Sequence record: PV730302.1
DNA: 64,000 nucleotides
Direction: 5' to 3' (one strand)
From: a phage
Below, in pieces: positions 23,881-44,674 of this stretch. Within the stretch, counting starts at the first letter, position 1; each line of letters opens with the position of its first letter. Both the position numbers and the translations under genes were made by a program. The notes under the pieces were generated by a model. It had not been told where the DNA came from and searched no databases. It saw only the letters and a list, made by a program, of their open reading frames with translations.

Positions 23881-23883
23881 TTT

Positions 23884-25201: not shown

Positions 25202-25202
25202 C

Positions 25203-26354: not shown

Positions 26355-26564
26355 TTACTTTGAACCAGAACGCGCTTTACGCCGAACCTTATTGTTCAAT
26401 CTTTTACGATAAACAACCTTTTCTTTCGCTTTAAATTTGGCCTTGGCTTGTTCTACATCAACCCATGCTTTGGCCATATCCTTAGCGGTCCCGCCCATTT
26501 TTTTAGCAATTTCTATAAAATTCAACCCAGATTCGTGTAAAAAATGTACTTTAACCTTGTCCAT
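26355..26564 (-). CDS. Hypothetical small basic protein with helix-turn-helix-like segment
   Basis: ORF 26355..26603; start revised to internal ATG (MDKVKVHF...); GLNFIEIAKKMGGTAKDMAKAW resembles HTH; Lys/Arg-rich C-terminus. Confidence 0.45.
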   Translation of the reverse strand: MDKVKVHFLHESGLNFIEIAKKMGGTAKDMAKAWVDVEQAKAKFKAKEKVVYRKRLNNKVRRKARSGSK

Positions 26565-26649
26565 AACAATTCTCTCGTTGAGTTGGTAAACCCATCTTAA
26601 CATAGGATTTTTAACTTGTAAACAGGAATTTTGTACTTTAATGCAAAAT

Positions 26650-26663
26650 GGGCCGAAAGGCCC
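26650..26663 (-). terminator. Hairpin downstream of hoc (GGGCC-gaaa-GGCCC)
   Basis: GC hairpin immediately 3' of hoc on minus strand with short T-run. Confidence 0.45.
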
Positions 26664-26667
26664 ATAA

Positions 26668-27516
26668 TTAGTAAACGTAATCGTATATAATACCAGCTTC
26701 TAAAGCGGTGCGATGAATAATTCGACCATTACGAGATTCTTGTACATCAACCTCTGGATAGTCGGTAATCATTTTTTGAAGTGTGTATCGGTGCAAATAA
26801 TACGGGCTATCTGGGTTATCTGTTTTCCAGTCTTGACCAGCAAGAGTCATTTTCTGAATTTCGTCCATAACCCACCAACCGCACCAAATATAAGCTGAAT
26901 TACGTACCGGCAGCGGATGAACGTAAGGTAGTTCACCATCCGGAACTGGTGCGACTTCAGCCGTGACTGTTACATTACCGGTTTTTGTGACAGTCGCCGG
27001 GTCATAATCAGTCGCCGAAACCACAACAGAAACTTCAATAACCTGTGAACCTTCAGTGCTTGTGTCGATTGCTAGAGTATCCGTGGTGCCAACTACAGGA
27101 GAACCGTCTTTCTTCCAAGAATAGGCAAAAGTAGCGCCAGCAGGCGCGCCGACTACATCCGCTTTAAAAGAAGCTGGAGTGCCTTCCGGAACATTAATTG
27201 ATTCTGGGGTTAATGTCACAGAAACATCTGACATAGTTTTGTTCTGGATAGTTAAAGTCGTCTCAGCTTCAGCAGTTTCCGGTTCGCCGTCCGCTGGTGT
27301 AGTTGTTGCAACAACTTTAATAGTCTTGCTGCCTGCTGGACCAACAGCAACATAATCCATTGCAGCAGTCACAGAAGATTGAGGAACGCCATCAACAGTC
27401 CAGACAAATGATTCGGTACCTTCAGCTGCAGCACCGGAACCGGTCGCAGTGAAATTGGTTGTTGCTCCAATAACGGCCGTAGCCGCCAAAGGAGCAATAT
27501 CTACGGTATAAGCCAT
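26668..27516 (-). CDS. hoc: Highly immunogenic outer capsid protein Hoc (short form)
   Basis: 282 aa; C-terminal region (ELPYVHPLP...SAYIWCGWWVMDEIQKMT...YYLHRYTLQKM) matches T4 Hoc as recalled; fewer N-terminal Ig-like repeats than T4. Confidence 0.85.
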   Translation of the reverse strand: MAYTVDIAPLAATAVIGATTNFTATGSGAAAEGTESFVWTVDGVPQSSVTAAMDYVAVGPAGSKTIKVVATTTPADGEPETAEAETTLTIQNKTMSDVSVTLTPESINVPEGTPASFKADVVGAPAGATFAYSWKKDGSPVVGTTDTLAIDTSTEGSQVIEVSVVVSATDYDPATVTKTGNVTVTAEVAPVPDGELPYVHPLPVRNSAYIWCGWWVMDEIQKMTLAGQDWKTDNPDSPYYLHRYTLQKMITDYPEVDVQESRNGRIIHRTALEAGIIYDYVY

Positions 27517-27526
27517 AATAAAACCC

Positions 27527-28198
27527 TTATTTTAAAGTGACAAAAGATGAGTTACGAGTTTCTCGTACTAGAACAGACCCATTACGATTGATGTAATAAA
27601 TCAAGCTGAATAGTGTTTGGTGTGCGGTAGGATGTTGGAAACTGGTTGGACGTTCTTTCCAATCCGGAGTCTCAGAAATCCATTGGTAAATCCACCAAGG
27701 AACGGTGCAATAACCAGGGTTCTTACCGATAAGCAAAAGATTAGGACTGAAGTTTTCAGGTAAAGAGAATACAGGTTTTTCAGATTCAACCACCTTGGCT
27801 ACAGCCTCTTTGAATTTCTCTTCGTCAAATGGAACATCCTCTTCGATAATCTCTACCTTAGGAAGTTCGGCCACCTCTATTACTTCAACAACCGCCTCAG
27901 GAGCATCGAACAACAGGGTTGCTTCTTCTTTAGCTGGTTCTACACCTTCGATAAAATCATTATCACCAGTGAGTTCGTCAGCAGCATCAATCAAATCAGA
28001 AATAGACAACCCGTCTGTTTCCGGAAGTGGTTCGTCAGCCAAGGCTTTAAGGCCTTCAGAGATATCGATAATCAAATTATCAAACGAACGGGTTTTCTTA
28101 AGTTTTAAACCGAACTGTTCGCCGTATTCGATTAACTTAGCTTTAGCTTCTTTTTTATCTTTGAGTGCACGAAGCTCTTCAATATATTGAGTATCCAT
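27527..28198 (-). CDS. inh: Putative Inh (inhibitor of prohead protease)
   Basis: 223 aa acidic protein in the T4 inh position between hoc and uvsW; called by synteny and size only. Confidence 0.55.
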   Translation of the reverse strand: MDTQYIEELRALKDKKEAKAKLIEYGEQFGLKLKKTRSFDNLIIDISEGLKALADEPLPETDGLSISDLIDAADELTGDNDFIEGVEPAKEEATLLFDAPEAVVEVIEVAELPKVEIIEEDVPFDEEKFKEAVAKVVESEKPVFSLPENFSPNLLLIGKNPGYCTVPWWIYQWISETPDWKERPTSFQHPTAHQTLFSLIYYINRNGSVLVRETRNSSFVTLK

Positions 28199-28217
28199 AA
28201 TTAGTCTCTTGTTGGTG

Positions 28218-28239
28218 TATAAATATAACTATATTTATA
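28218..28239. promoter_or_regulatory. Divergent late promoters: TATAAATA (+, uvsW) and TATAAATA on minus strand (inh)
   Basis: TATAAATA at 28218-28225 on + strand; TATTTATA at 28232-28239 reads TATAAATA on - strand. Confidence 0.5.
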
Positions 28240-28253
28240 ACTGAGAATTACTT

Positions 28254-29750
28254 ATGCAAATTCAAGTACATTTTGATAATTTTAGTCATGTCCGTATCGA
28301 GTGTGATGAATCCACATTCTACGAACTCAGAGACTATTTTAGCTTTGAAGCTGATGGATATAAATTCAACCCTAAATTTCGTTATGGGCAATGGGATGGG
28401 CGTATTCGTCTTCTAGATTATAACCGTAAACTGCCTTATGGACTTGTCCCTCAAATTAAAAAGTTCGCCGAACAATTTGAATATTCTCTGTGGATTGACC
28501 CACGTATTCTTGAACAGGAAGATATTTCTCGTGAAGATTTTGACTCATGGGTTGCTTCTCAAGAAATTTATTCAGGGTCTACCAAGATTGAGCCTCATTG
28601 GTATCAGAATGAAGCCGTATACAACGGCCTGACAAAACGACGCGCAATTCTGAATTTACCTACATCCGCAGGTAAATCATTGATTCAGGCGCTCCTGAGT
28701 CGATATTACGTTGAGAACTACGAAGGTAAAATCCTTATTCTGGTTCCTACTACTGCACTTGTCGACCAGATGATTAATGACTTCATCGATTATCGATTGT
28801 TCCCTAAAGCAGCAATGCTTGGTATTCGTTCAGGTACTGCTCGTGATTCTGATGCAATGATTTACGTTTCAACTTATCAAACTGCTATCAAGCAACCTAA
28901 AGAATGGTTTGCTCAGTTTGGTATGTTTATGAACGACGAATGCCATTTGGCTACAGGTAAATCTATTTCTACTATCATCGAAGGCCTAACCAACTGTATG
29001 TTTAAATTCGGTTTGTCTGGTTCTTTAAAAGATGGTAAAGCTAATTTAATGCAATATATGGGTTTGTTTGGTGATGTGTTTAAGCCGGTATCCACTTCCC
29101 AATTAATGGAAGAAGGACAGGTTACTGACCTTAAAATCAACAGTATTTTCCTTCGATACCCAGACGAATTCACTGTTAAGATGAAAGGTAAAGATTACCA
29201 ATCAGAAATTAAAGTCATTACTAAGGCTACTCGTCGTAATAAATGGGTTGCTAATTTAGCTGTTAAACTCGCTAAGAAAGAAGAGAACGTATTCCTGATG
29301 TTTAAAAACATCGAACACGGTAAAACTCTTTTTGAAATGGTTAAAGAGCAACATAAAGAAGTTTATTACGTATCAGGTGAAGTTAATACCGAAACGCGTA
29401 ATGCTCTGAAAGTAATGGCGGAAAATGGTAAGGGTATTATTGTTGTGGCAAGTTATGGTGTGTTCTCTACTGGTATTTCCGTTAAGAACCTTCACCACGT
29501 TGTATTTGCCCATCCAGTAAAATCTAAAATCATTGTACTCCAGACAATTGGTCGTGTACTCCGTAAACATGCCTCTAAATCAACAGCACAGGTGTGGGAT
29601 ATCATCGACGACATGGGTGTTAAGCCTAAATCAGCTACGGCTAAAAAGAAATATGTTCATTTGAACTACGCCCTCAAACACGCTTTAGAACGTATTCAAC
29701 GTTATGCTGATGAGAAATTTAATTACGTAATGAAACAGGTGGATTTATGA
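28254..29750 (+). CDS. uvsW: UvsW DNA/RNA helicase
   Basis: 498 aa; helicase motifs (LPTSAGKS Walker A, DECH box); strong similarity to T4 UvsW; TATAAATA at 28218-28225. Confidence 0.95.
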   Translation: MQIQVHFDNFSHVRIECDESTFYELRDYFSFEADGYKFNPKFRYGQWDGRIRLLDYNRKLPYGLVPQIKKFAEQFEYSLWIDPRILEQEDISREDFDSWVASQEIYSGSTKIEPHWYQNEAVYNGLTKRRAILNLPTSAGKSLIQALLSRYYVENYEGKILILVPTTALVDQMINDFIDYRLFPKAAMLGIRSGTARDSDAMIYVSTYQTAIKQPKEWFAQFGMFMNDECHLATGKSISTIIEGLTNCMFKFGLSGSLKDGKANLMQYMGLFGDVFKPVSTSQLMEEGQVTDLKINSIFLRYPDEFTVKMKGKDYQSEIKVITKATRRNKWVANLAVKLAKKEENVFLMFKNIEHGKTLFEMVKEQHKEVYYVSGEVNTETRNALKVMAENGKGIIVVASYGVFSTGISVKNLHHVVFAHPVKSKIIVLQTIGRVLRKHASKSTAQVWDIIDDMGVKPKSATAKKKYVHLNYALKHALERIQRYADEKFNYVMKQVDL

Positions 29751-29974
29751 AAACCTTTAAAGAAGTTATTCAAGAAGCATCTATTGAAAGCTTCATGGCT
29801 AAAATTGGTTCTTGTCAGACTATGGATGGTCTGAAGGAATTGGAAAAGTATTACAAAACTCGTAGTAAGGAAGCTGAACTTCGTGATTCGGATGATATTA
29901 GCGTGCGCGATGCATTGGCTGGTAAGAGAGCTGAATTGGAGTCGATGGACGACGAGGAAGAGGAAGATTTCTAA
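29747..29974 (+). CDS. uvsW.1: UvsW.1 small acidic protein
   Basis: 75 aa; overlaps uvsW stop; matches T4 UvsW.1 position and size. Confidence 0.8.
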   Translation: MKTFKEVIQEASIESFMAKIGSCQTMDGLKELEKYYKTRSKEAELRDSDDISVRDALAGKRAELESMDDEEEEDF

Positions 29975-29977
29975 ACA

Positions 29978-30010
29978 AAAAAGGCCCAACCTTTCGGAAG
30001 GGCCAATAAC
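29978..30010. terminator. Hairpin between convergent uvsW.1 and uvsY.-2-like gene
   Basis: GGCCcaaCCTT-tcgg-AAGGGCC bulged stem with A-run upstream. Confidence 0.4.
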
Positions 30011-30033
30011 CATAAATGGCTATACACACTAGA

Positions 30034-30201
30034 CTAAAGTAGTAATTGGGTTTCGTTCAGCTGTTCTTCAGTGTTTTCCGTAACCGGCAAGCTTTGAACG
30101 TAATTATAACATGAGCCCGGATGAACCGGACCTTTTTCTGTTTCAACAACCAATGCAGCATCGATTGGAGTTTTACAGACAACGCAAATCTTATCTGACA
30201 T
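30034..30201 (-). CDS. Small CxxC protein, uvsY.-2-like
   Basis: 55-aa ORF not in supplied track (MSDKICVVCKTPIDAAL...); CxxC plus HxxxC suggests zinc ribbon; position matches T4 uvsY.-2. Confidence 0.5.
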   Translation of the reverse strand: MSDKICVVCKTPIDAALVVETEKGPVHPGSCYNYVQSLPVTENTEEQLNETQLLL

Positions 30202-30229
30202 GATTGTCTCCTTAGTTTAACTTACATAT

Positions 30230-30328
30230 CTATTTATTACTTGATAAAGCGGTATTAATGAATTCTTGAAGAAGTTTCATTTTATCGGCATCTACTTTAA
30301 TGGGTTTGGTATTTTTAGTACGTCTCAT
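30230..30328 (-). CDS. Very small ORF (32 aa) translationally coupled to uvsY stop
   Basis: ATG overlaps uvsY TAA (TAATG); MRRTKNTKPIKVDADKMKLLQEFINTALSSNK; below track threshold. Confidence 0.3.
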   Translation of the reverse strand: MRRTKNTKPIKVDADKMKLLQEFINTALSSNK

Positions 30329-30762
30329 TATTTACCTGCCTCAAATTGTCTCATCTCATGCATGGTCTTAAGGTTAAAACCACGCGCCTTAATAGCATCA
30401 AGTGCTGAACTACAAAAGTCCTGTAATAAAGCCCAATACTGGATTGATGTATCGATTTTAATTACACTCGAATCTGCAGCCATAACGGTCTTTAATTCAG
30501 ACTTCTCATACTGGTCCATACAAACCTCATCACCAGGCTCTCCACGTCCCGTGTAGAAATCTAATCGCTTCTTAAGTGAGGTCTTTTTCTGGATTTCTAA
30601 TCTCATTATTTCTTTCTTACAATTCGTATACAGCCTTAGCCATTTGCTGTGCAGCAAAACGTTGTTCTGTACTTCATATTGTAAACGAGTTCCATCAATC
30701 TTTAAATCCTCGTCTAATGCGTCCTGAAATGATTCTAATTTATATTCAATCTCTTTACTCAT
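30328..30762 (-). CDS. uvsY: UvsY recombination mediator
   Basis: Start at internal ATG (MSKEIEYKLE...); strong similarity to T4 UvsY (KSELKTVMAADSSVIKIDTSIQYWALLQDFCSSALDAIKARGF). Confidence 0.88.
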   Translation of the reverse strand: MSKEIEYKLESFQDALDEDLKIDGTRLQYEVQNNVLLHSKWLRLYTNCKKEIMRLEIQKKTSLKKRLDFYTGRGEPGDEVCMDQYEKSELKTVMAADSSVIKIDTSIQYWALLQDFCSSALDAIKARGFNLKTMHEMRQFEAGK

Positions 30763-30791
30763 CGCATGTTTCCTGTGTAATAACCATAGGA

Positions 30792-30821
30792 CCATTATAC
30801 ACTATTCATTTGAACAGCAAT
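30792..30821 (-). promoter_or_regulatory. Candidate promoter for uvsY (TATAAT with partial MotA-like box TTGCTGTT)
   Basis: Minus strand TATAAT at 30794-30799 with TGCTGTT about 13 nt upstream; imperfect MotA box. Confidence 0.35.
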
Positions 30822-31210
30822 TAACCACTCTGTGAGAGCTGGATTCTAATTTGCTCTAATGTATCCGGGTCATCAACTATACTAAACTGAACGGTCACTA
30901 TAATCGAGTTATCATCGTACACAGGTGTCACACCTACAGCCAGGGTAGAAATTCTGGGTTCGAAGTTCCGCACAGCGGAAACTATATTACGCTTAATGGT
31001 ATCCGTGATTAGTGGAGTAATATTCTCAAACAATTGGTTACTGATGTCACAACCAAATTCAGGCATAAAAGGGCGTGAACCTTTGCGAGTAGTAATAATG
31101 CCTAACAAACTATTTTTTACTGCACGAGCACCTGTGGCTTTAGCGACGTCTCTATTCCAAGACGTCCTCATTTCAGGGTCTAAATCTGAATACATTTTAT
31201 TGATATTCAT
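30821..31210 (-). CDS. gp25: Baseplate wedge protein gp25
   Basis: 129 aa; strong similarity to T4 gp25 (LLGIITTRKGSRPF...EFGCD). Confidence 0.9.
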   Translation of the reverse strand: MNINKMYSDLDPEMRTSWNRDVAKATGARAVKNSLLGIITTRKGSRPFMPEFGCDISNQLFENITPLITDTIKRNIVSAVRNFEPRISTLAVGVTPVYDDNSIIVTVQFSIVDDPDTLEQIRIQLSQSG

Positions 31211-31833
31211 TACATCACCTTAAAGAACTCTTTAAGTCCCTCAATAACGTGGACGGTATGTTCACCGCATTCGCAAGAAATAGGTATAGCCAAAATAGGC
31301 TTAGGGGCAACTAGTGCATCATAAACTTCTTTTATGTCTTTTTCTGATATCACAGAATAAAGGTCATCAAGTTCCGCATCGCTTAAATCGGAAAGAAAAA
31401 GCTTTTCGCCTGCAGAAGTTAAAATATAATCGATACACCCTGCGACCATCATAGCTCTATTTTTATCTTCAAAGAGTTTAGGATATCTGAAAACAATTTT
31501 AAAGTTGCCAAAGTCTTTAATAACATCAGGCTCTTTACCTAATGTTGCGCGAGTTAGTGTCATAGGGACAACCTGTGAACGACCACAACTACAAACCCAC
31601 TCACGTTCTATATTCACTTCAGCTAATGAATGGGCCCACAGGTTTATCACCAGGAGCTCAGATTCTTGCTTGTTTAAATCACGAGCATCTGTGCAATTCG
31701 AAATGAGTTCATTGATAAAGGACTCTATTCTGCCTTCTAATTTAGCTTGGAGCAAGTCCTTATACTCTCTGAGGGTAAATGCTCTGCATTTTATGGTTTT
31801 GTTTTTAATTTTTACGTCAAAAGTATAATTCAT
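31210..31833 (-). CDS. gp26: Baseplate hub subunit gp26
   Basis: 207 aa; synteny upstream of gp25; AGGAG RBS; minus-strand TATAAATA at 31852-31859. Confidence 0.8.
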   Translation of the reverse strand: MNYTFDVKIKNKTIKCRAFTLREYKDLLQAKLEGRIESFINELISNCTDARDLNKQESELLVINLWAHSLAEVNIEREWVCSCGRSQVVPMTLTRATLGKEPDVIKDFGNFKIVFRYPKLFEDKNRAMMVAGCIDYILTSAGEKLFLSDLSDAELDDLYSVISEKDIKEVYDALVAPKPILAIPISCECGEHTVHVIEGLKEFFKVM

Positions 31834-31851
31834 TGTCTTCTCCTTTAAGCT

Positions 31852-31863
31852 TATTTATAAATA
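31852..31863. promoter_or_regulatory. Palindromic divergent late promoter TATTTATAAATA (gp26 on -, gp51 on +)
   Basis: 12-nt palindrome reads TATAAATA on both strands between divergently oriented gp26 and gp51. Confidence 0.55.
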
Positions 31864-33802: not shown

Positions 33803-34283
33803 TAAAGAGATTTCTATTCCTAAATTGGGTCTTAAACACCAGAAATTGGTTAAAGATGAAAAAGACCCTTACAAGGCTCTTCACATATTAATGAATTCCA
33901 TTTATAAAGATTTATCCGCGGCAGAGACTGATTTTGCCGCTCTTCACCTTTTAGAATTCAATGGAAGATTAAAAAGTAAAGTAACCAAAGACGGGTTTAC
34001 TTATAACTTAAATGACCTTTATATTTGCCAACGACTTGAATTCCAATTCCAAGGTAAAACATTTAAATTTAAATCACATGAACCATTTCAAACATTTGGG
34101 CCTGTTGATAGTGTATTACAGTCCCTTTACCTTGGTGATGATGTACCAGATTTTCTGGATATGCCTGCCTTTGTTGCTACATGGGCCGACGATATAACTT
34201 CTACTATAGCTATCCCTGGTCCTAATGGTCCTATCAAAGGATTGCTTAAAATCATGGATATCTTAAATGAAGAACGAATCTAA
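33756..34283 (+). CDS. gp28: Baseplate hub distal subunit gp28
   Basis: Start at internal ATG ([28 protein letters not shown]); about 175 aa; overlaps gp27 3' end. Confidence 0.75.
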
Positions 34284-36003
34284 TCAGAATAGTTTTCGTC
34301 GCAATAAACTGATTGAAGAAATGGCTCCTCAGCGTCGTGCTGAGGCGCTAGCCCAAACTCAGAACGACGAATTAGGAAATATATCAGATGTTTTATCCGA
34401 TTCCCAGGCGGCGTCTGAATTGCTCTCTGAAGTGGTTGAGACAAAGTCTAATCAGATTATTAGTTCTGTAGACCGAGTAGATAAAAGCGTCCAAGATGTT
34501 GTTGCCGGGACAGAATTAACGGCTGAAGCTATATCAGAACAAACTCAACAATCTAAAGCTCTTTCGGATGCACTAAACGAAAAGATTAATAAGCTTTCTA
34601 ATATGTTAGAGGCTAAATTTTCTGGTATTTCTATTCCACCGGAAGGGAGCTCATTAAAGGTTATTGAAGACTCTATTCCGGAAGAACCTAAGGCCGAAAC
34701 TCCTAAAGTTCCTGCTGTTGTTGAAGATATTCTTCCACCTGAAGATAATAAACCTGACGCTGAATTTATGCCTGAGCCTCCTAAAAATTCAGATGAAGGT
34801 AAAGAAGGTGATAAGACTTCTCTTTCCGAGAAAATAGAAGCCCTTACTAAAATAACTGAAAAGGGATTTAAAGCTTCTATAGGCGTCGCTGATAGAATTT
34901 CAGGCATGCTTTTTAAGTATACCATTACCGCTGCCGCTGAAGCTGCTAAACTCGCCGCAGGTTTAGTCCTTTTAATATTTGGTATAGATGCCATTCGTGT
35001 GTACTTCCAATATTTCATGGACCAATTTGAGGCAGGATGGAAAGAATTTAACGATAAGTTTAAAGAGTGGGGACCATTACTTGAAGGGCTAATGACATGG
35101 GCCAAGAATGCTGAAGCCATGTTTAGTGAAGGGAACTGGTTAGGTCTGGCTGAAGCCATTATTCGTGGTATGGTTAATCTTACTAAAAATATGGCCCAGC
35201 TTTTAATGCTCGGTATTTCTAAGTTGATTTCTGCCATTTTAAGCAAAATACCTGGTATGGGTGAGTTAGCTGAAAACGTGGAGGCTTCCGCTTTAATGTC
35301 GTATCAGCAAAATACAGGAGCCACTTTGGATGATGAAGACCAAACTAAAGTAGCCAAGTACCACGATAGACGTTCTGCCGAGGCTTTAGAAACAGCCGAG
35401 AAAATGAATAAGAAGTATAAGGATAAACCCGAGCTTATAAACCAAGCAGAGAAATACGGTAATCTTACTAAAGAACAAGCTGACCAATTACGTGCAGGTG
35501 GAATTGACACAAGCTTCCGTGACCTCCCTGAAGAAGAACGATTAGAGTATTTCAAGAAGCGGGATAAAGCCCAAGCCGATATTATTCGTTTGACTCAAAC
35601 TGCTGATAATATAATGAAGCCTGATTCTAAAGATATCGAAAATGCTAAAGCATTTAAAGCTGATATCGAGAAACAATTGGCCGACCCTATTATGGCTAAA
35701 GGCGGAGCACCGAAGGACCTTAATATCCAGCAATTACTTGATAAGATGAATAAATCTTTAGAGAAATTTAATGAAGCTGAAAAGCCTAAACCTGCTTCTG
35801 TAGCGGAATCTCCTGAAAATACCCAGGTTAAAAAGGTGGATGAGCAAATGAGAGCAAAGGAAAATGCTAAATATAGTCAGCAGGCTCCAACTCAAATAAA
35901 TCAGCAAACGAATATCAAGAAAACGAGTAAGACTAGTTATAATTTACCTCCACAGTCCTCTACTCCTGCTCCTGGTATGCGTCAAGCTACTAAAGTTAAT
36001 TAG
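34267..36003 (+). CDS. gp29: Baseplate hub / tail length determinator gp29
   Basis: 578 aa, extended helical protein; synteny. Confidence 0.85.
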   Translation: MKNESNQNSFRRNKLIEEMAPQRRAEALAQTQNDELGNISDVLSDSQAASELLSEVVETKSNQIISSVDRVDKSVQDVVAGTELTAEAISEQTQQSKALSDALNEKINKLSNMLEAKFSGISIPPEGSSLKVIEDSIPEEPKAETPKVPAVVEDILPPEDNKPDAEFMPEPPKNSDEGKEGDKTSLSEKIEALTKITEKGFKASIGVADRISGMLFKYTITAAAEAAKLAAGLVLLIFGIDAIRVYFQYFMDQFEAGWKEFNDKFKEWGPLLEGLMTWAKNAEAMFSEGNWLGLAEAIIRGMVNLTKNMAQLLMLGISKLISAILSKIPGMGELAENVEASALMSYQQNTGATLDDEDQTKVAKYHDRRSAEALETAEKMNKKYKDKPELINQAEKYGNLTKEQADQLRAGGIDTSFRDLPEEERLEYFKKRDKAQADIIRLTQTADNIMKPDSKDIENAKAFKADIEKQLADPIMAKGGAPKDLNIQQLLDKMNKSLEKFNEAEKPKPASVAESPENTQVKKVDEQMRAKENAKYSQQAPTQINQQTNIKKTSKTSYNLPPQSSTPAPGMRQATKVN

Positions 36004-36011: not shown

Positions 36012-37100
36012 ATGAAAGCAAAAGAAATTGACATTAATGTAGCCTCCTTGTTTAAAGGAGGCTCAAAGACCTCCGCCGGCCAGTCTAAAGCTAAACCGGC
36101 CCAAACTACAGTAATGGCCCAATACCCGGCAGAAAGGGTCTCCGGTAATGATACCTCCACAGATATGGTGTTAAGCGATTTATATAAAAACGGCTTACTT
36201 TTTACAGCGTATAATTTTAGCTCTCGTGTATCACCTGATTTGCGTAATGACCGATCAAGTCAAATGTCTAAAAAGTTTTCAAAAGCTGCTAGTAAGCTTA
36301 CCGGCAATACCGGAGGATTCAGCGCGGTTAAAAACTTGTTCAGTAATAACTCTAAGGGAGTTAAATTTGACAACCAAGCTTTGGCGAATATTTTACTCCC
36401 ACGTTCTAAATCTGACGTAGATTCGGTGTCGCATAAATTTAATGATGTCGGTGAATCATTAATTACTAAAGGCGGAGGTACTGCTACAGGTATTTTAAGT
36501 AACGTTGCAAGTACTGCAGTATTTGGTGCGTTGGAATCTGTGACTAATGGCGTAATGGCCGATTCAGGCGAGCAGATATACACCACAGCCCGTAGTATGT
36601 ATGCAGGGCCTGATAACCGTACTAAGGTATTCACTTGGGAAATGACTCCACGAAACGCCCAAGACCTTATCCAGATTATTAAAATATACGAAATCTTTAA
36701 TTACTATTCTTATGGTGAAACCGGCAACTCAGCCTTCGCTGGTGAATTAAAAGAGAAGATTGATACCTGGTATCGTTCTACGTTTAAAAAAGAAGCTATT
36801 GACAAGTTTGACGGTAAGCTATTAGGGGAAAGTATTACAAGCTTCCTTTCTAATGTTATTGTGGTAAGTAATCCGACCATTTGGTATATCCGAAACTTTG
36901 GTGATAGCAGTTCATATGATGGTCGTGAAGATATTTTTGGTCCATGCCAAATCCAGAGTATCCGTTTTGATAAAACTCCGGACGGCCATTTTAACGGATT
37001 GGCTATTGCTCCTAACTTACCATCTACGTTTAGTTTAGAAGTTACTTTCCGTGAAATCATTACTTTGAACCGTGGCTCACTTTATACGGAAGGATTCTAA
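36012..37100 (+). CDS. gp48: Baseplate-tail tube junction protein gp48
   Basis: 362 aa; synteny and size. Confidence 0.88.
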   Translation: MKAKEIDINVASLFKGGSKTSAGQSKAKPAQTTVMAQYPAERVSGNDTSTDMVLSDLYKNGLLFTAYNFSSRVSPDLRNDRSSQMSKKFSKAASKLTGNTGGFSAVKNLFSNNSKGVKFDNQALANILLPRSKSDVDSVSHKFNDVGESLITKGGGTATGILSNVASTAVFGALESVTNGVMADSGEQIYTTARSMYAGPDNRTKVFTWEMTPRNAQDLIQIIKIYEIFNYYSYGETGNSAFAGELKEKIDTWYRSTFKKEAIDKFDGKLLGESITSFLSNVIVVSNPTIWYIRNFGDSSSYDGREDIFGPCQIQSIRFDKTPDGHFNGLAIAPNLPSTFSLEVTFREIITLNRGSLYTEGF

Positions 37101-38029
37101 TGTATACTTTACAAGAATTTCAGAACCAGGCAATTAATATTGACCTACAGAGGAATAACCTGTTTAGTGTAGTATTTGCAACGGTTCCTTCTTCTAAATC
37201 TCAAGCGCTCCTCGACCAGTTCGGTGGAGCTTTATTTAACAATATCCCATTGAATAGCGATTTGTTTGGTATTACACAAGGAGAGTTGACCCAAGGTGTT
37301 ACGACATTAGTGACAGCGGGCACTCAGAAGTTGATTCGTAAGTCAGGCATAAGTAAATATTTGATTGGAGCTATGTCATCCAGGGTTGTGCAGAGCTTAC
37401 TAGGAGAGTTTGAAGTAGGTACATATCTGATGGATTTTTTCAATATGGCCTATCCTACGGCAGGTCTTTTAGTCCACGCCGTTAAAATCCCGGATAATAC
37501 TTTGAACTATGAAATGGATTTGAACCACAACTCACCTAACATCAAAATTACCGGAAGAGAATATTCTCCATTAGTATTAAGCTTCCGTATGGATTCTGAA
37601 GCTGCTAACTACCGTGCTTTTAATGATTGGGTCAATAGTGTTCAAGACCCTATTACACAATTAAGAGCATTACCGGAGGATGTTGAAGCTGACATTCAAG
37701 TCAACCTTCATTCCCGTAATGGATTACCACATACGGTAGTAATGCTTAATGGTTGCGTTCCAATGAGCGTATCTTCCCCGGAATTATCTTACGACGGTGA
37801 TAACCAAATTGCTTCATTTGATGTTACATTTGCTTATAGAAGTGTACAGACTGGTGCAGTTGGCAAACAAGCTGCTTATGAATGGTTAGAAGATAAAGTC
37901 CTTAAAGGCGTGGCGGGTATAAGTGAGAGCAATTCCCTGAGTTCTTCAGTAGCTAAATTAAGCCGACTTTCAGGAGCTTCTAGTGGATTAACAGGATTGG
38001 TTAATAGTGGAATATCGAGGTTGTTATAA
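37100..38029 (+). CDS. gp54: Baseplate-tail tube initiator gp54
   Basis: 309 aa; synteny; followed by palindromic bidirectional terminator. Confidence 0.88.
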   Translation: MYTLQEFQNQAINIDLQRNNLFSVVFATVPSSKSQALLDQFGGALFNNIPLNSDLFGITQGELTQGVTTLVTAGTQKLIRKSGISKYLIGAMSSRVVQSLLGEFEVGTYLMDFFNMAYPTAGLLVHAVKIPDNTLNYEMDLNHNSPNIKITGREYSPLVLSFRMDSEAANYRAFNDWVNSVQDPITQLRALPEDVEADIQVNLHSRNGLPHTVVMLNGCVPMSVSSPELSYDGDNQIASFDVTFAYRSVQTGAVGKQAAYEWLEDKVLKGVAGISESNSLSSSVAKLSRLSGASSGLTGLVNSGISRLL

Positions 38030-38050
38030 CAAAAAAGGAGAGCATATGCT
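38021..38050. terminator. Bidirectional terminator between convergent gp54 and ORF 38064..38354
   Basis: Perfect 18-nt palindrome GGAGAGCATATGCTCTCC flanked by A6 and T-rich sequence. Confidence 0.65.
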
Positions 38051-38063
38051 CTCCTTTAGGGGT

Positions 38064-38354
38064 TTATTTACGGAACGAAATGAAACCTGCTGTGGTCATT
38101 AGTGGTTGCTTTTTAACAAACACCGTAACCGAAATAGGAGCTTCGGATTCGAGTTGTCCTGTCACTACACCGTTAAAAATGTTTTCGGTTTGTTCTGGAT
38201 AAGAAAAATTCTCAACAGGTCGGATATCAAACTGTTTGTCTTCACCGAAAACTCGACGTAATTCATTACCCACTGCACTGTCAAACTCTTCAGAAGCAGG
38301 GATAACGTTTTCAACTACCAGTTCTTGACCATTAAAACGGAATGTAGATTTCAT
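38064..38354 (-). CDS. Hypothetical early protein (96 aa)
   Basis: AGGAG RBS 7 nt upstream of ATG; GTTTAC-N17-TACTAT promoter at 38380-38412; terminator downstream. Confidence 0.6.
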   Translation of the reverse strand: MKSTFRFNGQELVVENVIPASEEFDSAVGNELRRVFGEDKQFDIRPVENFSYPEQTENIFNGVVTGQLESEAPISVTVFVKKQPLMTTAGFISFRK

Positions 38355-38379
38355 AATGTTCTCCTCATGTTTGTGTAAG

Positions 38380-38412
38380 GTAATAGTACCACATCCTTGT
38401 GGTAATGTAAAC
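38380..38412 (-). promoter_or_regulatory. T4 early-type promoter GTTTAC-N17-TACTAT
   Basis: Upstream of ORF 38064..38354; -35 element overlaps alt paralog 1 stop codon. Confidence 0.5.
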
Positions 38413-40538
38413 TACATTTTGAATTTATTTGATAAAGAAGAGATATCCAAAGATGCAGCAAGGATTTCCATAGCCTCGTTACTTTCAGAAATGGATTCAC
38501 TAACCAAGAACTGTTTAAAGCCGTCCATCAGGCGAACTTCACCAGTTTCCATCAAATGGTCACCATCGTAAACAGATTCACTGAGCTCTGAAGGAGGTGT
38601 TACGGTAGCTTCCATAAGGTATTTGTGAGATACTCTATCATTCATGGCAAAAGCCGCTACTTTATCAACCTTCAACAATAATCCACGCGGAAGGATAATT
38701 TCTGCTTCTTCGGCATATTCTGTAAGGTCACCAGGAGCGATAACTTTAACTGCTTCAGCACCTCGAATAACCATACCAATTTCAGCAATTCTATCCGCAG
38801 GACCTTCAGGTGCAATTGGATTACCGAACTCGTCTTCTTCCCATTCTACCTCTTCGTCATCGACTTCACCCACATCAGATGAACTACCGCTAGCCAATTT
38901 AAACAACTCATCAGCGGAGGATAAAGAACCTTCGCCGCCAACAAAAACGGCTTGGTTGTCGAGGGCCATATAATTTTTACCAAATTCACCAAAGATGTTA
39001 GGCTTTAATGAGGCTGACACAAAGTTCTTAAAGTAAAATGTTTTGTTATCGATATTATGGCGCAGAATTTTGTATGGCAAATCCTGACCACGATACAAAA
39101 TAGTACCCTTAGGAAGTTTAATACCCTTAGTAAATGCTGAGTCTAAATCCTTAATCAATTTAATAGCCGTTGTATTGTTTTCGGATTCAGGTTTACCTAA
39201 AAGGAATAAGTTCATAGGAGCATATTCAGCTGCGCAATATTCAATAATAGCATTGCTTTCGTCTTTGGTTAGGTCCTTAGGTTTAATGAGCTCGCCTGAA
39301 TAAGCATATGCATCACTAATAGAATCGTTAACCAGTTTATAAACGGCTTCCATAGCGAAAGCAATTCGAGAGGCCTTTTCTGAAGGAGAACCCTTAAAAC
39401 GAGCACTCAAGTTATTAACAATTTTCTTAATAATATCCAGACTATTGGTTGTATTGATTTGCGAAAGACCACTTAAAAGTCTATCGACTTCTGTATTAAA
39501 AAATGCCATATTATTAGAGTAAATTTCAAACCCTTGTTTATCTCTATTAGCATAATTTAGTTTAAATTTACTATCAGTCATTAAAGCGTGCGTGAGGGCA
39601 ATAGTGTATCTAAAGTTGGCAAGGTCCTCGCTCTTAGATTTAAACTGAGAAGCCTGGCGCATTTTAGTAATAGCACCTTTTTTAAAGTTCTGACTAATCT
39701 GTTCAATACCTTCATTCTCAGGGCCTTCAGCCGTGTGAACCGGTACAGAAGCTTCAAACTCGTTATAAACCTGCAATTCTTTAGGGGACAAAGTTTCAGG
39801 CTCAGCAGTAGAATACTGTGCGGCTGCTGCCATACGACGGGAAATCTTAGTACGGGTAATGACAGCCTTATCAGTACGTTTCTCTTCAACTTGTGCAATA
39901 GATGCCGCTACTGCTTCGACCTTACTTACGGCCTGGCCGGTTTTCTTAGAAACATACACTTCGCCAACTTTAGACTCAACTTTAGTATAAAGATCGGCAT
40001 TAATTTCAGGCATACCCTTGATATCTTCAATATTAGCACCGCGACGTACTAAAAGAACGTAGGTATGTTTTCCGCTGAATTGGAACATGTCGTCAACAAC
40101 TTTAAACTTACCACCGGTACGGGCCATAGCCAAACGAGCTAATACGCGCTGAACGGTAGGGCCTTTACCTTTCATTTTCTTAGTAGGGAAACGGAATAAA
40201 ACCGCGTCCATTTTAAGTTTGTTTATTTGTTCGTATATGGTATCGAAAATGGTGTTCAGTGTACCGAGTGGATCGGTACCCAACCCACCCTTGAGTTCTG
40301 CCGGAGCGCCTTTAGCAGACAAACTCATCAAAATAACATGAACATATTTGTCGCCCGGCTTAACCATTTTAATAGCGTCTCCTTGAGACGCATAAGATAC
40401 CATACGAGCAACCAGATTATCGTTACCTGGGGCTTGGATAGAGAAAATCTGTGGAATACCGGAACCTGGTTTAAGATTTGTTACTGGATAGTTTTTAGCG
40501 GAATCACTATCAAAAACCTCATTTAAATTTTCCATCAT
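38412..40538 (-). CDS. alt: Alt-like ADP-ribosyltransferase, paralog 1 (predicted capsid-packaged)
   Basis: 708 aa; conserved N-terminal half shared with paralog 2; C-terminal R (LYRGQ) / S-x-S (FVSASL) / E (EAEIILPRG) motifs. Confidence 0.85.
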   Translation of the reverse strand: MMENLNEVFDSDSAKNYPVTNLKPGSGIPQIFSIQAPGNDNLVARMVSYASQGDAIKMVKPGDKYVHVILMSLSAKGAPAELKGGLGTDPLGTLNTIFDTIYEQINKLKMDAVLFRFPTKKMKGKGPTVQRVLARLAMARTGGKFKVVDDMFQFSGKHTYVLLVRRGANIEDIKGMPEINADLYTKVESKVGEVYVSKKTGQAVSKVEAVAASIAQVEEKRTDKAVITRTKISRRMAAAAQYSTAEPETLSPKELQVYNEFEASVPVHTAEGPENEGIEQISQNFKKGAITKMRQASQFKSKSEDLANFRYTIALTHALMTDSKFKLNYANRDKQGFEIYSNNMAFFNTEVDRLLSGLSQINTTNSLDIIKKIVNNLSARFKGSPSEKASRIAFAMEAVYKLVNDSISDAYAYSGELIKPKDLTKDESNAIIEYCAAEYAPMNLFLLGKPESENNTTAIKLIKDLDSAFTKGIKLPKGTILYRGQDLPYKILRHNIDNKTFYFKNFVSASLKPNIFGEFGKNYMALDNQAVFVGGEGSLSSADELFKLASGSSSDVGEVDDEEVEWEEDEFGNPIAPEGPADRIAEIGMVIRGAEAVKVIAPGDLTEYAEEAEIILPRGLLLKVDKVAAFAMNDRVSHKYLMEATVTPPSELSESVYDGDHLMETGEVRLMDGFKQFLVSESISESNEAMEILAASLDISSLSNKFKM

Positions 40539-42623
40539 TTACCCTTGGATGAATTTTTCTGGGATGTCATAGAGGTCTATGCATGAAGCCAAAAGAGGCA
40601 ATACATCAAACCGTGTAGATTTAACAAATGAATCAAAAGATACAGGGCTTTCGGAAGTATCGAAGTCATCTTGATATACGACCAACTCGCCGGTTTCCAT
40701 TAGTACGTCACCATCATATACCACAGATTCTTGAAGCTCATCTGTTGTCATAACTTCAGCTTGGATGAGTTTTGTATTACTAGATGTTGTTCCATCATTA
40801 TTAGAAGCATCTGTTATTTTATTAACTTTGACCATTAATCCACGCGGTAGAATAACTTCAGCTTCAGTTGCTATTCCGAGATTTCCTGGATATACGACAT
40901 TAACTTTATGAGCTCCATCAATCGCCCATCCTATTTGAACTTTAACATAATCAGGATTTTCTTTATATGCTCTTATTTCATTAGGATTAATAGTTATTCC
41001 TTCTTCATTTTTATCGACTGTCAATTCATTACGAACTTCCGGTTCTAAAAGACCAATACCTGCGTGCGTAACACCAAAACGTCCAAAAATGATAGGAGTT
41101 AAAGAAGTAGATACAAAATTTCTGAAATAGAACACTTTATTTTTAACTAGTGCTTCGTATATAGGAGCAGTCATACTCTGGGCACGATAAACTGTAATGC
41201 CTTCTGGTATACGGTCACCATTTTCAAAAGCAGAATCCAAATTATTAACTGCGGATTCGATATCTTTTTCGCTCATAACCTCATAGTTCTGAGGATTATA
41301 ACGTCCTAAAAGAAGATTATTTATGTCTGTATATCCTGAACCACAATATTCTCTGATGCCGCGCTTTTGTGATGGGGTATATTTAGAGCCCTCACGAGCA
41401 ATAGTAATATCGACCATAATACCGCCACCCACACCAGCAAAACTATATACACGTTTTTTAATGAACTTGGTCTTGGTGGCTTTCCACTTCGCATCGGTCA
41501 ATTCATTCCAGAGGTCGTCAGGTTGGCCTTTACGAGTTTTGTTATGCCGGGCCAGCCATTCACCTTTGTATTCTTCGAAAACGGTATTAATAGCAGAGGC
41601 ATATTTTTCTAGAGCTTTAACAGATGTCAAAGGTTCGTTTTTGATGGCCGTAAGAATTTTATCTTTAATTTTCTCTTGGATTTCGCCAATACCGTGAAGT
41701 GGGAACAATTTATAGTCGTAATGCAATTCTTCAGCAGTGCCTTCAGCTACTATATTAGCAACCCTATTTTTAGCCGCAGGAGAATTGTTATTAATGACCA
41801 TTTCCTGGGCCTCAGGGATTAATGGAACTGTTGCCGGTTTATTAAAATCCGCTGCAGTAGCTTCATATTTCTTAAACAATTCACTTTCATTACGATAAGA
41901 TTCCAATGATTGGCTTGCTGCAATGGCGCGCCTAGAAATCTTAGTCTTGGTTATAACCATTTTATCAGTGCGACGTTCTTCAACCTTAGCAATACTGCCG
42001 GCAATAGCAGTTTCTTTAGTAACCTGCACACCTTCTTTTTTGGAAATATAAACTTCACCGACATCAGAATCTACCTTAGTATACAATTCAGCATTAATTC
42101 CAGGCATACCTTTGATATCTTCGATATCAGCTTGTTTACGAACTACTAAGATGTAAGTATGTTTACCGGTAAATTGGTACATAGCCGGAACCACTTTAAA
42201 ACGTCCACCGGTTTTCTGTGCTACCAAACGTTGGATAATACGTTGAACGATAGGGCCTTGACCTTTCATTTTCTTGGTAGGAAAACGGAACATCACGGCA
42301 TCCATACGAAGCTTTTTAACTTGGTCATAAACCACATCAAAAATAGTATTAATCGCATCTACAGGAGTAGGGCCAAGGCCACCTTTAAGTTCGGCTGGAG
42401 TACCTTTAGCTGAAAGGCTCATAAGGATAACGTGGGCATATTTATCACCCATTTTAACTTGTTTAATAGCATCACCTTCAGAAGCGTAGGATACCATACG
42501 AGCAACTAATTGGGATTCTGCGTCGCCGATCTTCCAAATCTGGGGTACTTTAAGTTTAGGGTTCAAGTTTACTGTAGGCAGTGTGCCTTCGGACTCAAAC
42601 ACTTCATTTAATTGTTCGGTCAT
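40539..42623 (-). CDS. Alt-like ADP-ribosyltransferase, paralog 2
   Basis: 694 aa; N-terminal region near-identical in places to paralog 1 (MVSYASEGDAIKQVKMGDKYAHVILMSLSAKG); C-terminal YRAQ / FVSTSL / EAEVILPRG motifs. Confidence 0.85.
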   Translation of the reverse strand: MTEQLNEVFESEGTLPTVNLNPKLKVPQIWKIGDAESQLVARMVSYASEGDAIKQVKMGDKYAHVILMSLSAKGTPAELKGGLGPTPVDAINTIFDVVYDQVKKLRMDAVMFRFPTKKMKGQGPIVQRIIQRLVAQKTGGRFKVVPAMYQFTGKHTYILVVRKQADIEDIKGMPGINAELYTKVDSDVGEVYISKKEGVQVTKETAIAGSIAKVEERRTDKMVITKTKISRRAIAASQSLESYRNESELFKKYEATAADFNKPATVPLIPEAQEMVINNNSPAAKNRVANIVAEGTAEELHYDYKLFPLHGIGEIQEKIKDKILTAIKNEPLTSVKALEKYASAINTVFEEYKGEWLARHNKTRKGQPDDLWNELTDAKWKATKTKFIKKRVYSFAGVGGGIMVDITIAREGSKYTPSQKRGIREYCGSGYTDINNLLLGRYNPQNYEVMSEKDIESAVNNLDSAFENGDRIPEGITVYRAQSMTAPIYEALVKNKVFYFRNFVSTSLTPIIFGRFGVTHAGIGLLEPEVRNELTVDKNEEGITINPNEIRAYKENPDYVKVQIGWAIDGAHKVNVVYPGNLGIATEAEVILPRGLMVKVNKITDASNNDGTTSSNTKLIQAEVMTTDELQESVVYDGDVLMETGELVVYQDDFDTSESPVSFDSFVKSTRFDVLPLLASCIDLYDIPEKFIQG

Positions 42624-42658
42624 AATAATTCCTCTTTAATAACCTTATTTATGCCAGA

Positions 42659-42674
42659 AAAGGCCCTAAGGCCT
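42659..42674 (-). terminator. Hairpin AAGGCC-ctaa-GGCCTT downstream of ORF 42678..42860
   Basis: GC hairpin followed on minus strand by TTTTCT. Confidence 0.45.
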
Positions 42675-42677
42675 TTA

Positions 42678-42860
42678 TTAAAGTACTAACAGCGTACGGT
42701 ACACTTCAAATTTAGGACCCTTTTCATAGCGGTCGAAATTATCTTTAAAATCGGCGAACGCGATTTCATTTTCAAATTCAAGGACAATTTGGGACACTGC
42801 AGTGGAGACATCCCCACCTTCTTTATATCCAATAACCACGGTTTCTAAATAAGCTTTCAT
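42678..42860 (-). CDS. Hypothetical small protein
   Basis: ORF 42678..42902 with start moved to internal ATG next to the gp30 stop; terminator hairpin downstream at 42659-42674. Confidence 0.4.
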   Translation of the reverse strand: MKAYLETVVIGYKEGGDVSTAVSQIVLEFENEIAFADFKDNFDRYEKGPKFEVYRTLLVL

Positions 42861-42861
42861 A

Positions 42862-44385
42862 TTATAGTCCAGTTTGAGACCAATCACCAAATACATCTTC
42901 AAATGTATCAGCTTCTGTTTTATCGAAACGCCAACCTTTAATAATTGGAAGGAAAATACCTACGGTATCAGTACGTCCTTTAGAGTGAACCCAACCATTA
43001 CATTCACAGTCGGCAATACGGCCAATCAATTTACCTTCACGAGCTTGTTTCATAAGAAGTTCACGGTCTAAATCAGGACGGTCTTCCAGTGGAATCAATA
43101 CCTTTTTACCTGATTTATCTTTCTTATGGGTAGTATCTTTAAAGCCTGAGCCACAGTCACTTGTAATTCGACGGCAATGTGATACTAATTCAACACCACC
43201 AAGTTTGTTAGGGTCCTTCGAGTGTTCATAATAACCTACCACTTCTAAAGCGATATCTATTACTTCTTTGAACTTGATAAGATTCTTAGAACGGCGATTT
43301 TCCCAGTAGGAGTCCATGTTCTTAAGGATAATACCTTCCAGACCTTGGTCGACATATTTTTTATAAACGACTTTAGCTTCTTCAAGATTATTAACCCACT
43401 GGTTTTCGATAGCTTCAACACGCGTTGTGCCATGCAATACGACATTATGAGCAACCATAAGTTCTAAGGCTGTAAAGCGTACATCATACTTATCGCCTTT
43501 AATTTTACCTTCGGAATATACGACATCCAATGGGACATAATCCCATGCCTGTAATACCATACCAGCGGCTTCAGTAGCCGAAATAGTTCCTTGAAGAGCT
43601 TTGTTAGCCAAGCCATTTGACGTAGAACGATCGGCGACAGTTTGGAATTCCTTAGCCTTACTTAATTCAGGAAGTTCCTCGTCAAACATACTAAACAAAT
43701 CATTAGATGCTTTAGGTTCTACCTTAGGAGTATGGTAAACTAATTCGCCATCAATCATAACGCCATTAGGATGGCGTTGTCGAGCTTCTTCGGTCATGGC
43801 CATTAATTCAGCAGCCAAAAGATTAAGCCCTTGATATTCATTACCACCACGAGTAAGGAATGTCACACCATCGTTACGAACTTCGGCAAAACAACGAGCA
43901 CCATCAGCTTTTAATTGAGCAAACGCTGGCCATTTAATATTTTTCTTAATCAAAGCTTCATCATAAGAACTCGCCAACATCTGCGGTTGTTCAGGGATTA
44001 AACCTTTCCAAACCTTGTTAGCAATAGAAATCGATGCACCACATTCAAGGTCGCGCATCATTACACGACGTAATACCTCGGCATCCGGGGCCTTAGCATC
44101 AGCAATGATTTGAGCCAGTTCTTCAATAGCCGCATTACCCGTAATCTTACGTGTGGCTAATGTGAATTCAGCGAAATCAAGAAGGTCTTCAAGAGTAATC
44201 ATACCAAAGGATTGAGATGTAAATCCAGGTTCTGGCCACTTTTTAATACCGTAGTTCAGACGACGGGTATAAGCCATACGATAAACACGTTTCAGAAGCT
44301 CATTGTCCTTTTCACGAGCAATAATGGCTTCTTTAGCTTTAGTAGAATCAATAGCAGCAATTTCGTTTAAAATATCTAAAATCAT
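42862..44385 (-). CDS. gp30: ATP-dependent DNA ligase gp30
   Basis: Start at internal ATG (MILDILNEIAAID); KADGARCF adenylation motif; strong similarity to T4 DNA ligase as recalled. Confidence 0.92.
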   Translation of the reverse strand: MILDILNEIAAIDSTKAKEAIIAREKDNELLKRVYRMAYTRRLNYGIKKWPEPGFTSQSFGMITLEDLLDFAEFTLATRKITGNAAIEELAQIIADAKAPDAEVLRRVMMRDLECGASISIANKVWKGLIPEQPQMLASSYDEALIKKNIKWPAFAQLKADGARCFAEVRNDGVTFLTRGGNEYQGLNLLAAELMAMTEEARQRHPNGVMIDGELVYHTPKVEPKASNDLFSMFDEELPELSKAKEFQTVADRSTSNGLANKALQGTISATEAAGMVLQAWDYVPLDVVYSEGKIKGDKYDVRFTALELMVAHNVVLHGTTRVEAIENQWVNNLEEAKVVYKKYVDQGLEGIILKNMDSYWENRRSKNLIKFKEVIDIALEVVGYYEHSKDPNKLGGVELVSHCRRITSDCGSGFKDTTHKKDKSGKKVLIPLEDRPDLDRELLMKQAREGKLIGRIADCECNGWVHSKGRTDTVGIFLPIIKGWRFDKTEADTFEDVFGDWSQTGL

Positions 44386-44395
44386 AATCACCTCA

Positions 44396-44674
44396 TTAGT
44401 CATGGATTCTATTATAAGCCACATCAGCCAAAAGCAAGTCTAATCGCTTATGATAAGAGAACACAAATCTCATTCGCCCATCAGATTTGAACTTGGACAT
44501 AAAGTGGACATAAATGAATCCCTGTTCGACGCATTCGCGCCAAACAGGATGGTCTTTAGCCGGATTTACATCAAATGAGTAATCATGATTCACATGACGA
44601 ATAAACTGGTTTACATGACCATAATCCATTGTAGTGGTAGGACCATAGTCTGAAATTGTATGAACTACAAACAT
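44396..44674 (-). CDS. Hypothetical protein (30.1 position)
   Basis: ORF 44396..44707; start set to internal ATG (MFVVHTISDYG) adjacent to upstream gene stop. Confidence 0.45.
   Translation of the reverse strand: MFVVHTISDYGPTTTMDYGHVNQFIRHVNHDYSFDVNPAKDHPVWRECVEQGFIYVHFMSKFKSDGRMRFVFSYHKRLDLLLADVAYNRIHD

Follow-up and report, generated by a model that had tools for sequence, protein, structure and literature searches.

Judging from its sequence and genomic position, the open reading frame (ORF) at 38064..38354 on the minus strand of the window (the whole 64-kb stretch of phage DNA analyzed here) is the ortholog of bacteriophage T4 alt.-3. We propose that it constitutes a monocistronic immediate-early unit, i.e., a single gene with its own T4-type early promoter, ribosome-binding site (RBS), and intrinsic terminator, and that its small product may act by binding. 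Taken as a whole, this explanation has in our estimation a probability of about 0.9, the binding function within it being put forward more tentatively. The unit and its neighbors are laid out as follows.

34267..36003, plus strand: gp29-like ORF of the baseplate operon.
36012..37100, plus strand: gp48-like ORF of the baseplate operon.
37100..38029, plus strand: gp54, baseplate tail-tube initiator, with which the convergent late baseplate operon ends; it forms the downstream boundary of the unit.
38030..38057, minus strand: predicted intrinsic terminator, hairpin AAAGGAGAGC-ATAT-GCTCTCCTTT with a TTTTTTG tail; core palindrome at 38037..38054.
38064..38354, minus strand: coding sequence of the putative alt.-3 ortholog, 96 aa, 10.9 kDa; member of Pfam DUF5498 and of phrog_1739.
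38361..38365, minus strand: Shine-Dalgarno sequence AGGAG, 6 nt 5' of the ATG.
38383..38391, minus strand: extended -10 element TGgTACTAT (TACTAT at 38388..38383, preceded by TG).
38407..38412, minus strand: -35 element GTTTAC of a T4-type early (sigma-70) promoter, part of a GTTTACA invariant in the ten-lineage alignment.
38412..40538, minus strand: Alt paralog 1 (ADP-ribosyltransferase), the upstream neighbor, whose 3' end holds the upstream part of the alt.-3 promoter.
40539..42623, minus strand: Alt paralog 2 (ADP-ribosyltransferase), with an ADP-ribosyltransferase domain, as in paralog 1.
42646..42676, minus strand: hairpin AAAGGCCTTAGGGCCTTT followed by the late-promoter-like CATAAATA and an RBS, upstream of the alt block.

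The window itself comes, on sequence grounds, from a Dhakavirus, i.e., a T4-like coliphage; at 37900..38600, its DNA shares 100% identity with Shigella phage PSD9 and with Escherichia phage 04086, the value for WG01 (Dhakavirus) being 97.7%. The 96-aa product matched Pfam DUF5498 (PF17602) with a score of 116.6 bits, where the cut-off is 27 (E = 7e-34; residues 1 to 96 of 96), and, in a profile search, phrog_1739, likewise over residues 1 to 96 (E = 2.6e-42). It aligned without gaps along all 96 aa with T4 Alt.-3 (NP_049808, UniProt P39493) at 58% identity, 100% coverage, and E = 3e-29; the two proteins share their 96-aa length and the place and orientation of their genes between gp54 and alt, and they differ at ~42% of their residues. 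The name alt.-3 is given to the gene in the annotations of T4 (NP_049808), SP18, PG7, and SQ17, and an identical protein has been deposited from PSD9. In other words, alt.-3 is already known and annotated in T4 and hundreds of its relatives. The original prediction had found "no recognisable motif" in the product, a statement that does not survive its full-length membership in DUF5498 and phrog_1739 and its orthology to a named T4 gene. Recognizable homology to a characterized protein had been named as what would refute the original prediction; the homolog does have a name, T4 alt.-3, but is itself functionally uncharacterized.

A tblastn search retrieved 847 phage records, each matching over at least 80% of the query and with identities down to ~35%, and across these 847 records the position of alt.-3 between gp54 and alt is fixed. 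The order gp48, gp54, convergent alt.-3, and alt is kept in T4, WG01, PSD9, SP18, EcS1, and SQ17, and the same arrangement was found in Klebsiella phages pzk-kv8 and KMI13, Enterobacter phages Q7622 and PG7, Serratia phage X20, and Proteus phage Pp2. Given this constant, syntenic location, the term "cargo" that had been applied to it is wrong: it is not a mobile accessory. When 1.84 billion proteins (representatives at 50% identity) were searched exhaustively with a profile, 21 matched, nearly all of them single-domain proteins of 90 to 115 aa; two long matches, P0052 and P0054, were dismissed as relatives, being low-complexity repeat proteins. By these searches, the alt.-3 family is small and phage restricted, without relatives outside the T4-like phages.

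As predicted, the ORF encodes an acidic 96-aa protein (pI 4.78; net charge, ~-4.5; 14 D+E versus 10 K+R). With a pI of 4.8 the acidity is only moderate, and on this account the possibility of a DNA mimic was rejected. The dN/dS ratio of the ORF is 0.03 versus SP18 and 0.34 versus T4, and codon positions 1, 2, and 3 carry 13, 3, and 46 differences, respectively, in the comparison with SP18, indicating that the ORF is under purifying selection. This bears on whether the ORF might be spurious and the region a mere regulatory spacer separating convergent operons. Nothing other than its small size favors such a reading, which has already been refuted by the full-length conservation down to ~35% identity in 847 records, the dN/dS of 0.03, the confident fold predicted by AlphaFold2, and the detection of the T4 protein by proteomics; it is effectively excluded, with a negligible probability.

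T4 early promoters are defined by GTTTAC at -36 to -31, a TAnnnT -10 element ~18 nt further on, often with TGn, and an A-rich stretch upstream, the position of GTTTAC being that of the canonical T4 early-promoter geometry (PMC1524935). The minus-strand sequence 5' of the ORF, caaaatgtaGTTTACattaccacaaggatgTGgTACTATtaccttacacaaacatgAGGAGaacattATG, contains a promoter that conforms to this definition, caaaatgtaGTTTACa-N14-TGgTACTAT. Its spacer measures 18 nt when counted from GTTTAC; in the sigma-70 TTTACA register, in which a promoter scan reported it with the TG extension flagged, it measures 17 nt. Counted from GTTTAC, the spacer exceeds the sigma-70 optimum by one nucleotide, which is the usual arrangement in T4. 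The elements of the GTTTAC-N17-TACTAT promoter initially described are thus present, but the N17 is one nucleotide short. The overlap with the stop codon of alt paralog 1 was correctly recognized, base 38412 doubling as the G of GTTTAC and the last base of the TAG stop (38412..38414), as was the AGGAG RBS, found at 38365..38361 on the minus strand. In its strict form, GTTTAC-N15-TGNTANNNT, the early motif occurs four times in the 64-kb window versus 0.06 expected, all four on the minus strand, the strand of early transcription.

The 89 nt 5' of the start codon were aligned for ten Tevenvirinae lineages. Invariant in this alignment are GTTTACA, the G-T-G-n-T-A-n-n-n-T of the extended -10 element, and the TGAGGA of the RBS, with variable bases around these columns. 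T4 alt.-3 shares with the window gene the early promoter motif (aaaatgtaGTTTACa...TGnTAnnnT), the RBS, and a downstream hairpin, and both its RNA and its protein are classed as early (PMC9697503 supplementary files 4 and 6); the promoter conservation supports early expression of alt.-3 in the window as well. The view of the ORF as an early gene with its own promoter, RBS, and terminator is hence borne out, all three being conserved in the ten Tevenvirinae lineages and the T4 ortholog being early. Since promoter, RBS, and hairpin are conserved across these lineages, the single-gene promoter-ORF-terminator unit is an ancestral feature that the Tevenvirinae have maintained.

The sequence GGAGAGCATATGCTCTCC at 38037..38054 is the sole perfect palindrome of at least 18 nt in the 64-kb window (0.35 expected). 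Together with flanking A/T pairs it forms a hairpin with a 10-bp stem and a 4-nt loop (-16.3 kcal/mol; z = -6.5). On the alt.-3 strand the stem is directly followed by TTTTTTG, and a terminator scan classified the structure as an intrinsic (Rho-independent) terminator, confirming the perfect 18-nt palindromic terminator of the original prediction. That the same element "also ends the gp54 transcript" was upheld only insofar as the hairpin does face gp54: on the gp54 (plus) strand the scan made no call, just TTT following the stem (TTTAGGGG). Because only TTT follows and the scan criteria were not reached there, gp54 termination is the least well supported element of the original prediction. 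As a terminator of gp54 the hairpin is weak, and it could stabilize the gp54 RNA or partly terminate the transcript. A GC-rich hairpin lies directly after the alt.-3 stop codon in all ten lineages, with different stems (GGAGAGC, GGACC, GGGAGCC, GGGAGAC, and GGGGACC), and a run of 5 to 10 T's is found on the alt.-3 side in every aligned lineage except T4, whose hairpin differs in sequence from that of the window and has its U-run on the gp54 side. A search of Rfam over the terminator gave a sub-threshold chance match (STnc390, 18.6 bits versus a gathering score of 50).

Upstream, the insulation of the unit depends on the phase of transcription. By virtue of the hairpin and late-type promoter in front of it, the alt block is a late-type unit into which early transcription from upstream does not pass, and it is therefore the dedicated promoter that makes alt.-3 early. 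The terminator 5' of alt is conserved in five of six T4-like genomes (Nolan et al., PMC1524935). In the same place upstream of alt, a hairpin in T4 precedes the late promoter TATAAATA, whereas the window has AAAGGCCTTAGGGCCTTT followed by CATAAATA; T4 also differs in carrying alt.-1 and alt.-2 remnants upstream where the window has a second alt paralog of full length. The alt.-3 promoter, in contrast, is not separated from alt paralog 1 by a terminator, the alt stop codon overlapping the -35 element, and late alt transcripts can therefore read into alt.-3. The description of the gene as "fully insulated" consequently applies to its downstream side and, because a terminator precedes the alt block, to early transcription, but not to late read-through from alt.

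The AlphaFold2 model of the protein, based on a 29-sequence alignment, has a pLDDT of 96.4 and a pTM of 0.84. The predicted topology is beta-beta-alpha-beta-alpha-beta-beta, the last long hairpin ending in a conserved F-x-F-R-K C terminus; a C-terminal beta-clamp-binding motif was considered and rejected, because the model places the F-x-F segment in a core beta-strand. Fold neighbors in BFVD are all uncharacterized T4-like proteins (Klebsiella F48, Salmonella CGG4-1, PG7, BovinicusUrsus, Yersinia TG1, and Morganella MP1). Against the PDB, the best Foldseek hit of the model had an E value of 0.19, and a sequence profile search returned noise (E ~0.6). Pfam recognized DUF5498 alone and no other domain, PADLOC gave no match, and a literature search for DUF5498 yielded nothing relevant. 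Homology to a characterized anti-defense or defense-associated protein was found in none of the Pfam, PADLOC, PDB sequence, and fold searches. The homology and structure prediction check suggested at the outset has thus provided a named family and a confident fold, but no match among solved structures.

From these features we envisage that unmodified host sigma-70 RNA polymerase would read the GTTTAC-N15-TGnTAnnnT promoter, the transcript starting ~22 nt 5' of the ATG, and that the strong Shine-Dalgarno sequence would drive alt.-3 translation. The GC-rich hairpin with its U-run would stop the alt.-3 transcript before it enters gp54 in antisense. The alt genes would form a separate late unit with its own terminator and late-type promoter, and read-through from alt into alt.-3 would be unblocked at late times. 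The product would be a compact, stable, acidic globular protein without a catalytic signature.

AsiA, Arn, Stp, Dmd, and PinA are small immediate-early proteins with which T4 modulates its host. By description, Alt.-3 may be likened to them (~10 kDa, early, dispensable in laboratory hosts, no enzymatic motif), and by analogy it may share what is presumed to be a common mode of action, i.e., the stoichiometric binding of a host protein; it differs from them in that the Pfam, PDB sequence, and fold searches provided no characterized relative. Based on this analogy, and on a DUF as the only Pfam domain, no PDB sequence match, and 21 small representatives among 1.84 billion proteins, we suggest, at odds just short of even, that Alt.-3 binds a host protein stoichiometrically early in infection and in this way modulates the host or counters a defense, being of use to the phage only in certain hosts or under certain conditions. 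The "host-takeover or anti-defence" role initially attributed to the gene is plausible by the same analogy. The free, invariant F-x-F-R-K end of the last strand is probably either part of the functional surface or must stay unextended for native function. Wild-type T4 Alt.-3 has no detected phenotype on laboratory E. coli or CmdTAC (PMC11618068, PMC11879866); in a CRISPRi-ART screen, T4 alt.-3 was scored "Not Fit," i.e., its knockdown had no fitness effect in laboratory E. coli (PMC11879866 supplement).

In a full-text literature search, discussion of alt.-3 was found solely in Vassallo et al. (Nature 2024; PMC11618068) and in the preprint of that study, in connection with the toxin-antitoxin-chaperone defense system CmdTAC. 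The T4 escapers from CmdTAC, in every replicate lineage, had all gained mutations that lengthen the 96-aa Alt.-3 to 110 or 117 aa, and the extended protein by itself, in the absence of CmdC, stabilizes the antitoxin CmdA against ClpP-dependent degradation (PMC11618068). Conceivably, then, wild-type Alt.-3 natively and conditionally modulates Clp-dependent (ClpXP/ClpAP) proteolysis or labile TA/TAC antitoxins and is already docked on the protease or the antitoxin, the escape alleles merely strengthening a pre-existing activity, by analogy with the action of T4 PinA, named as a Lon inhibitor by the same authors (PMC11618068). If true, such docking would explain how one stop-loss or frameshift mutation creates a full CmdTAC inhibitor, and also why no other T4 gene gave an escape route. 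Indeed, once alt.-3 had been deleted, 17 rounds passed without any alternative escape from CmdTAC (PMC11618068), which suggests that the Alt.-3 body is needed and not just any tail; the strong conservation of the C terminus would also fit. However, wild-type T4 Alt.-3 does not stabilize CmdA, neither triggers nor blocks CmdTAC, and does not relieve the toxicity of CmdTA, and T4 lacking alt.-3 is viable and restricted by CmdTAC to the same degree (PMC11618068). Moreover, a -1 frameshift in T4 appends a strongly hydrophobic tail (GRAVY +1.0) to a very stable fold; this alone could jam an unfoldase or bind CmdA, a neomorphic effect, and the whole activity of the escape alleles could come from such a hydrophobic addition, which would leave them silent on native function. 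With, in addition, no homology to any protease inhibitor in the Pfam, PDB sequence, and fold searches, we regard a native activity of this kind as unlikely.

The genomic neighborhood raises two other candidate functions, both of which we rejected. Alt.-3 might be a partner of the Alt ADP-ribosyltransferases, whether as an early inhibitor or immunity protein, a specificity factor, or a regulator of injected Alt, given that an alt gene directly precedes alt.-3 in all Tevenvirinae genomes inspected and that the alt.-3 promoter is embedded in the alt 3' end. Adjacency is weak evidence here because T4-like genomes are collinear in general, and the timing is discordant: in T4, alt belongs to the middle class by RNA and to the late class by protein, and its product is packaged, whereas alt.-3 is early (PMC9697503 supplements). 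The number of alt paralogs, furthermore, is 1, 2, or 3 while alt.-3 stays single, and alt.-3 has its own promoter, with no translational coupling to alt. In Aeromonas phage 31, three alt-like genes converge directly on gp54 and alt.-3 is absent, and this, together with the timing, renders the partnership quite improbable. A role as a baseplate or tail assembly factor would suit a gene that adjoins the gp29, gp48, and gp54 operon, but alt.-3 is on the opposite strand under an early promoter, no late promoter TATAAATA was found near it on the minus strand, and in T4 the protein is early (PMC9697503) and the gene dispensable (PMC11618068, PMC11879866). On strand and timing, an assembly factor is effectively excluded.

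The alt.-3 promoter and terminator in the window are textbook T4 elements, and the finding as it stands matters little. What retains value is the combination of a highly conserved early gene, a confident fold without a match among solved structures, and a tiny phage-restricted family, for which there is one published genetic handle, the gain-of-function alleles, which prevent a defense antitoxin from being degraded. The host partner of Alt.-3, once identified, would fill one of the blanks left in the T4 early program and could in addition show how proteolysis in the host is adjusted by phages.

As read from the downstream frame, the Dhakavirus of the window has the same one-step route to an extended protein: as in the CmdTAC escape alleles, loss of the stop codon would give 117 aa, the tail TPKGEHMLSFFVITTSIFHY being read through the terminator hairpin. 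The window protein differs from those alleles in having the wild-type 96-aa form that ends in FRK and that in T4 is inactive against CmdTAC. With the reference T4 alt.-3 sequence, the published lengths of 110 and 117 aa were not reproduced, a -1 frameshift giving 116 aa and in-frame read-through continuing without a stop for >45 codons. The hypothetical window tail is less hydrophobic than the T4 -1 frameshift tail (GRAVY, 0.32 versus 1.01).

Loss of the stop codon of alt.-3, the 96-aa early gene convergent with gene 54, is predicted to yield a 117-aa protein whose tail, TPKGEHMLSFFVITTSIFHY (positions 37964..38066, minus strand), would be read through the terminator hairpin, while a -1 frameshift close to the 3′ end of the gene would give a predicted protein of 109 aa. 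These predicted extensions resemble the extended Alt.-3 alleles by which T4 escapes the CmdTAC defence system. By analogy with T4, the phage may thus have the identical one-step escape route from CmdTAC available to it.

In the published T4 classification (PMC9697503, supplementary file 4), the late baseplate gene 54 (positions 254..1216 of L004, the T4 comparison locus) appears to be assigned to the late class at the protein level but to the early class at the RNA level. One possible cause is antisense read-through of the alt.-3 early transcript, which is conceivable because the T4 hairpin is without a U-run on the alt.-3 side.

Upstream of alt.-3, the sequence ttcaaaatgTAGtttac at the 3′ end of alt paralog 1 (38407..38425, minus strand) is near-identical to the end of T4 alt.-2, gttcaaaatgtagtttac (approximately 1585..1605 in L004); the T4 alt remnants thus derive from the paralog adjoining alt.-3. 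Half of the alt.-3 promoter, the upstream one, lies within the coding end of alt and constrains it. Copy number differs between phages: the window has two full-length alt genes, WG01 and PSD9 have three, and T4 has one plus the alt.-1/alt.-2 remnants. Over the 700 bp probed, WG01 and PSD9 are otherwise 98–100% identical to the window and yet have one more alt gene, the difference from PSD9 corresponding to an indel of ~1.9 kb. The features of this region are as follows.

38412..42623, minus strand: two full-length alt genes
42624..44424: alt.1 and DNA ligase, following directly
42646..42676, minus strand: hairpin AAAGGCCTTAGGGCCTTT then CATAAATA, preceding alt paralog 2

The hairpin in front of alt paralog 2 was overlooked by a simple terminator scan. 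T4 has a hairpin and an exact late promoter octamer, TATAAATA, at the corresponding place, whereas in the window hairpin AAAGGCCTTAGGGCCTTT is accompanied by CATAAATA, which differs from that octamer at one position. The alt.1 homolog (60 aa; 42678..42860, minus strand) gave a full-length match to Pfam PF24647, "Phage blade protein" (E = 4.5e-29); in T4-type records, alt.1 is still labelled a conserved hypothetical protein.

Copies of TATAAATA number 17 against 7.3 expected, and 13 of them lie on the plus strand between 3.9 and 32 kb (3967..31863), a clustering consistent with a late structural gene block. Besides alt.-3, another early gene is housed in a late operon, between gp23 (21943..23502) and gp24 (23921..25201), occupying 23552..23877 (minus strand) with its promoter. 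Its product had no Pfam family match, and its sole family match was phrog_6003, of unknown function. This gene and the additional T4-type early promoter motifs are as follows.

23552..23833, minus strand: 93-aa ORF
23877..23848, minus strand: T4-type early promoter motif of the 93-aa ORF
26594..26623, minus strand: additional early promoter motif
51174..51203, minus strand: additional early promoter motif
53133..53162, minus strand: additional early promoter motif

The first of the additional motifs (26594..26623) runs across the start annotated for a DUF2774 ORF (26355..26603), an overlap suggesting that translation of this ORF truly begins farther downstream.
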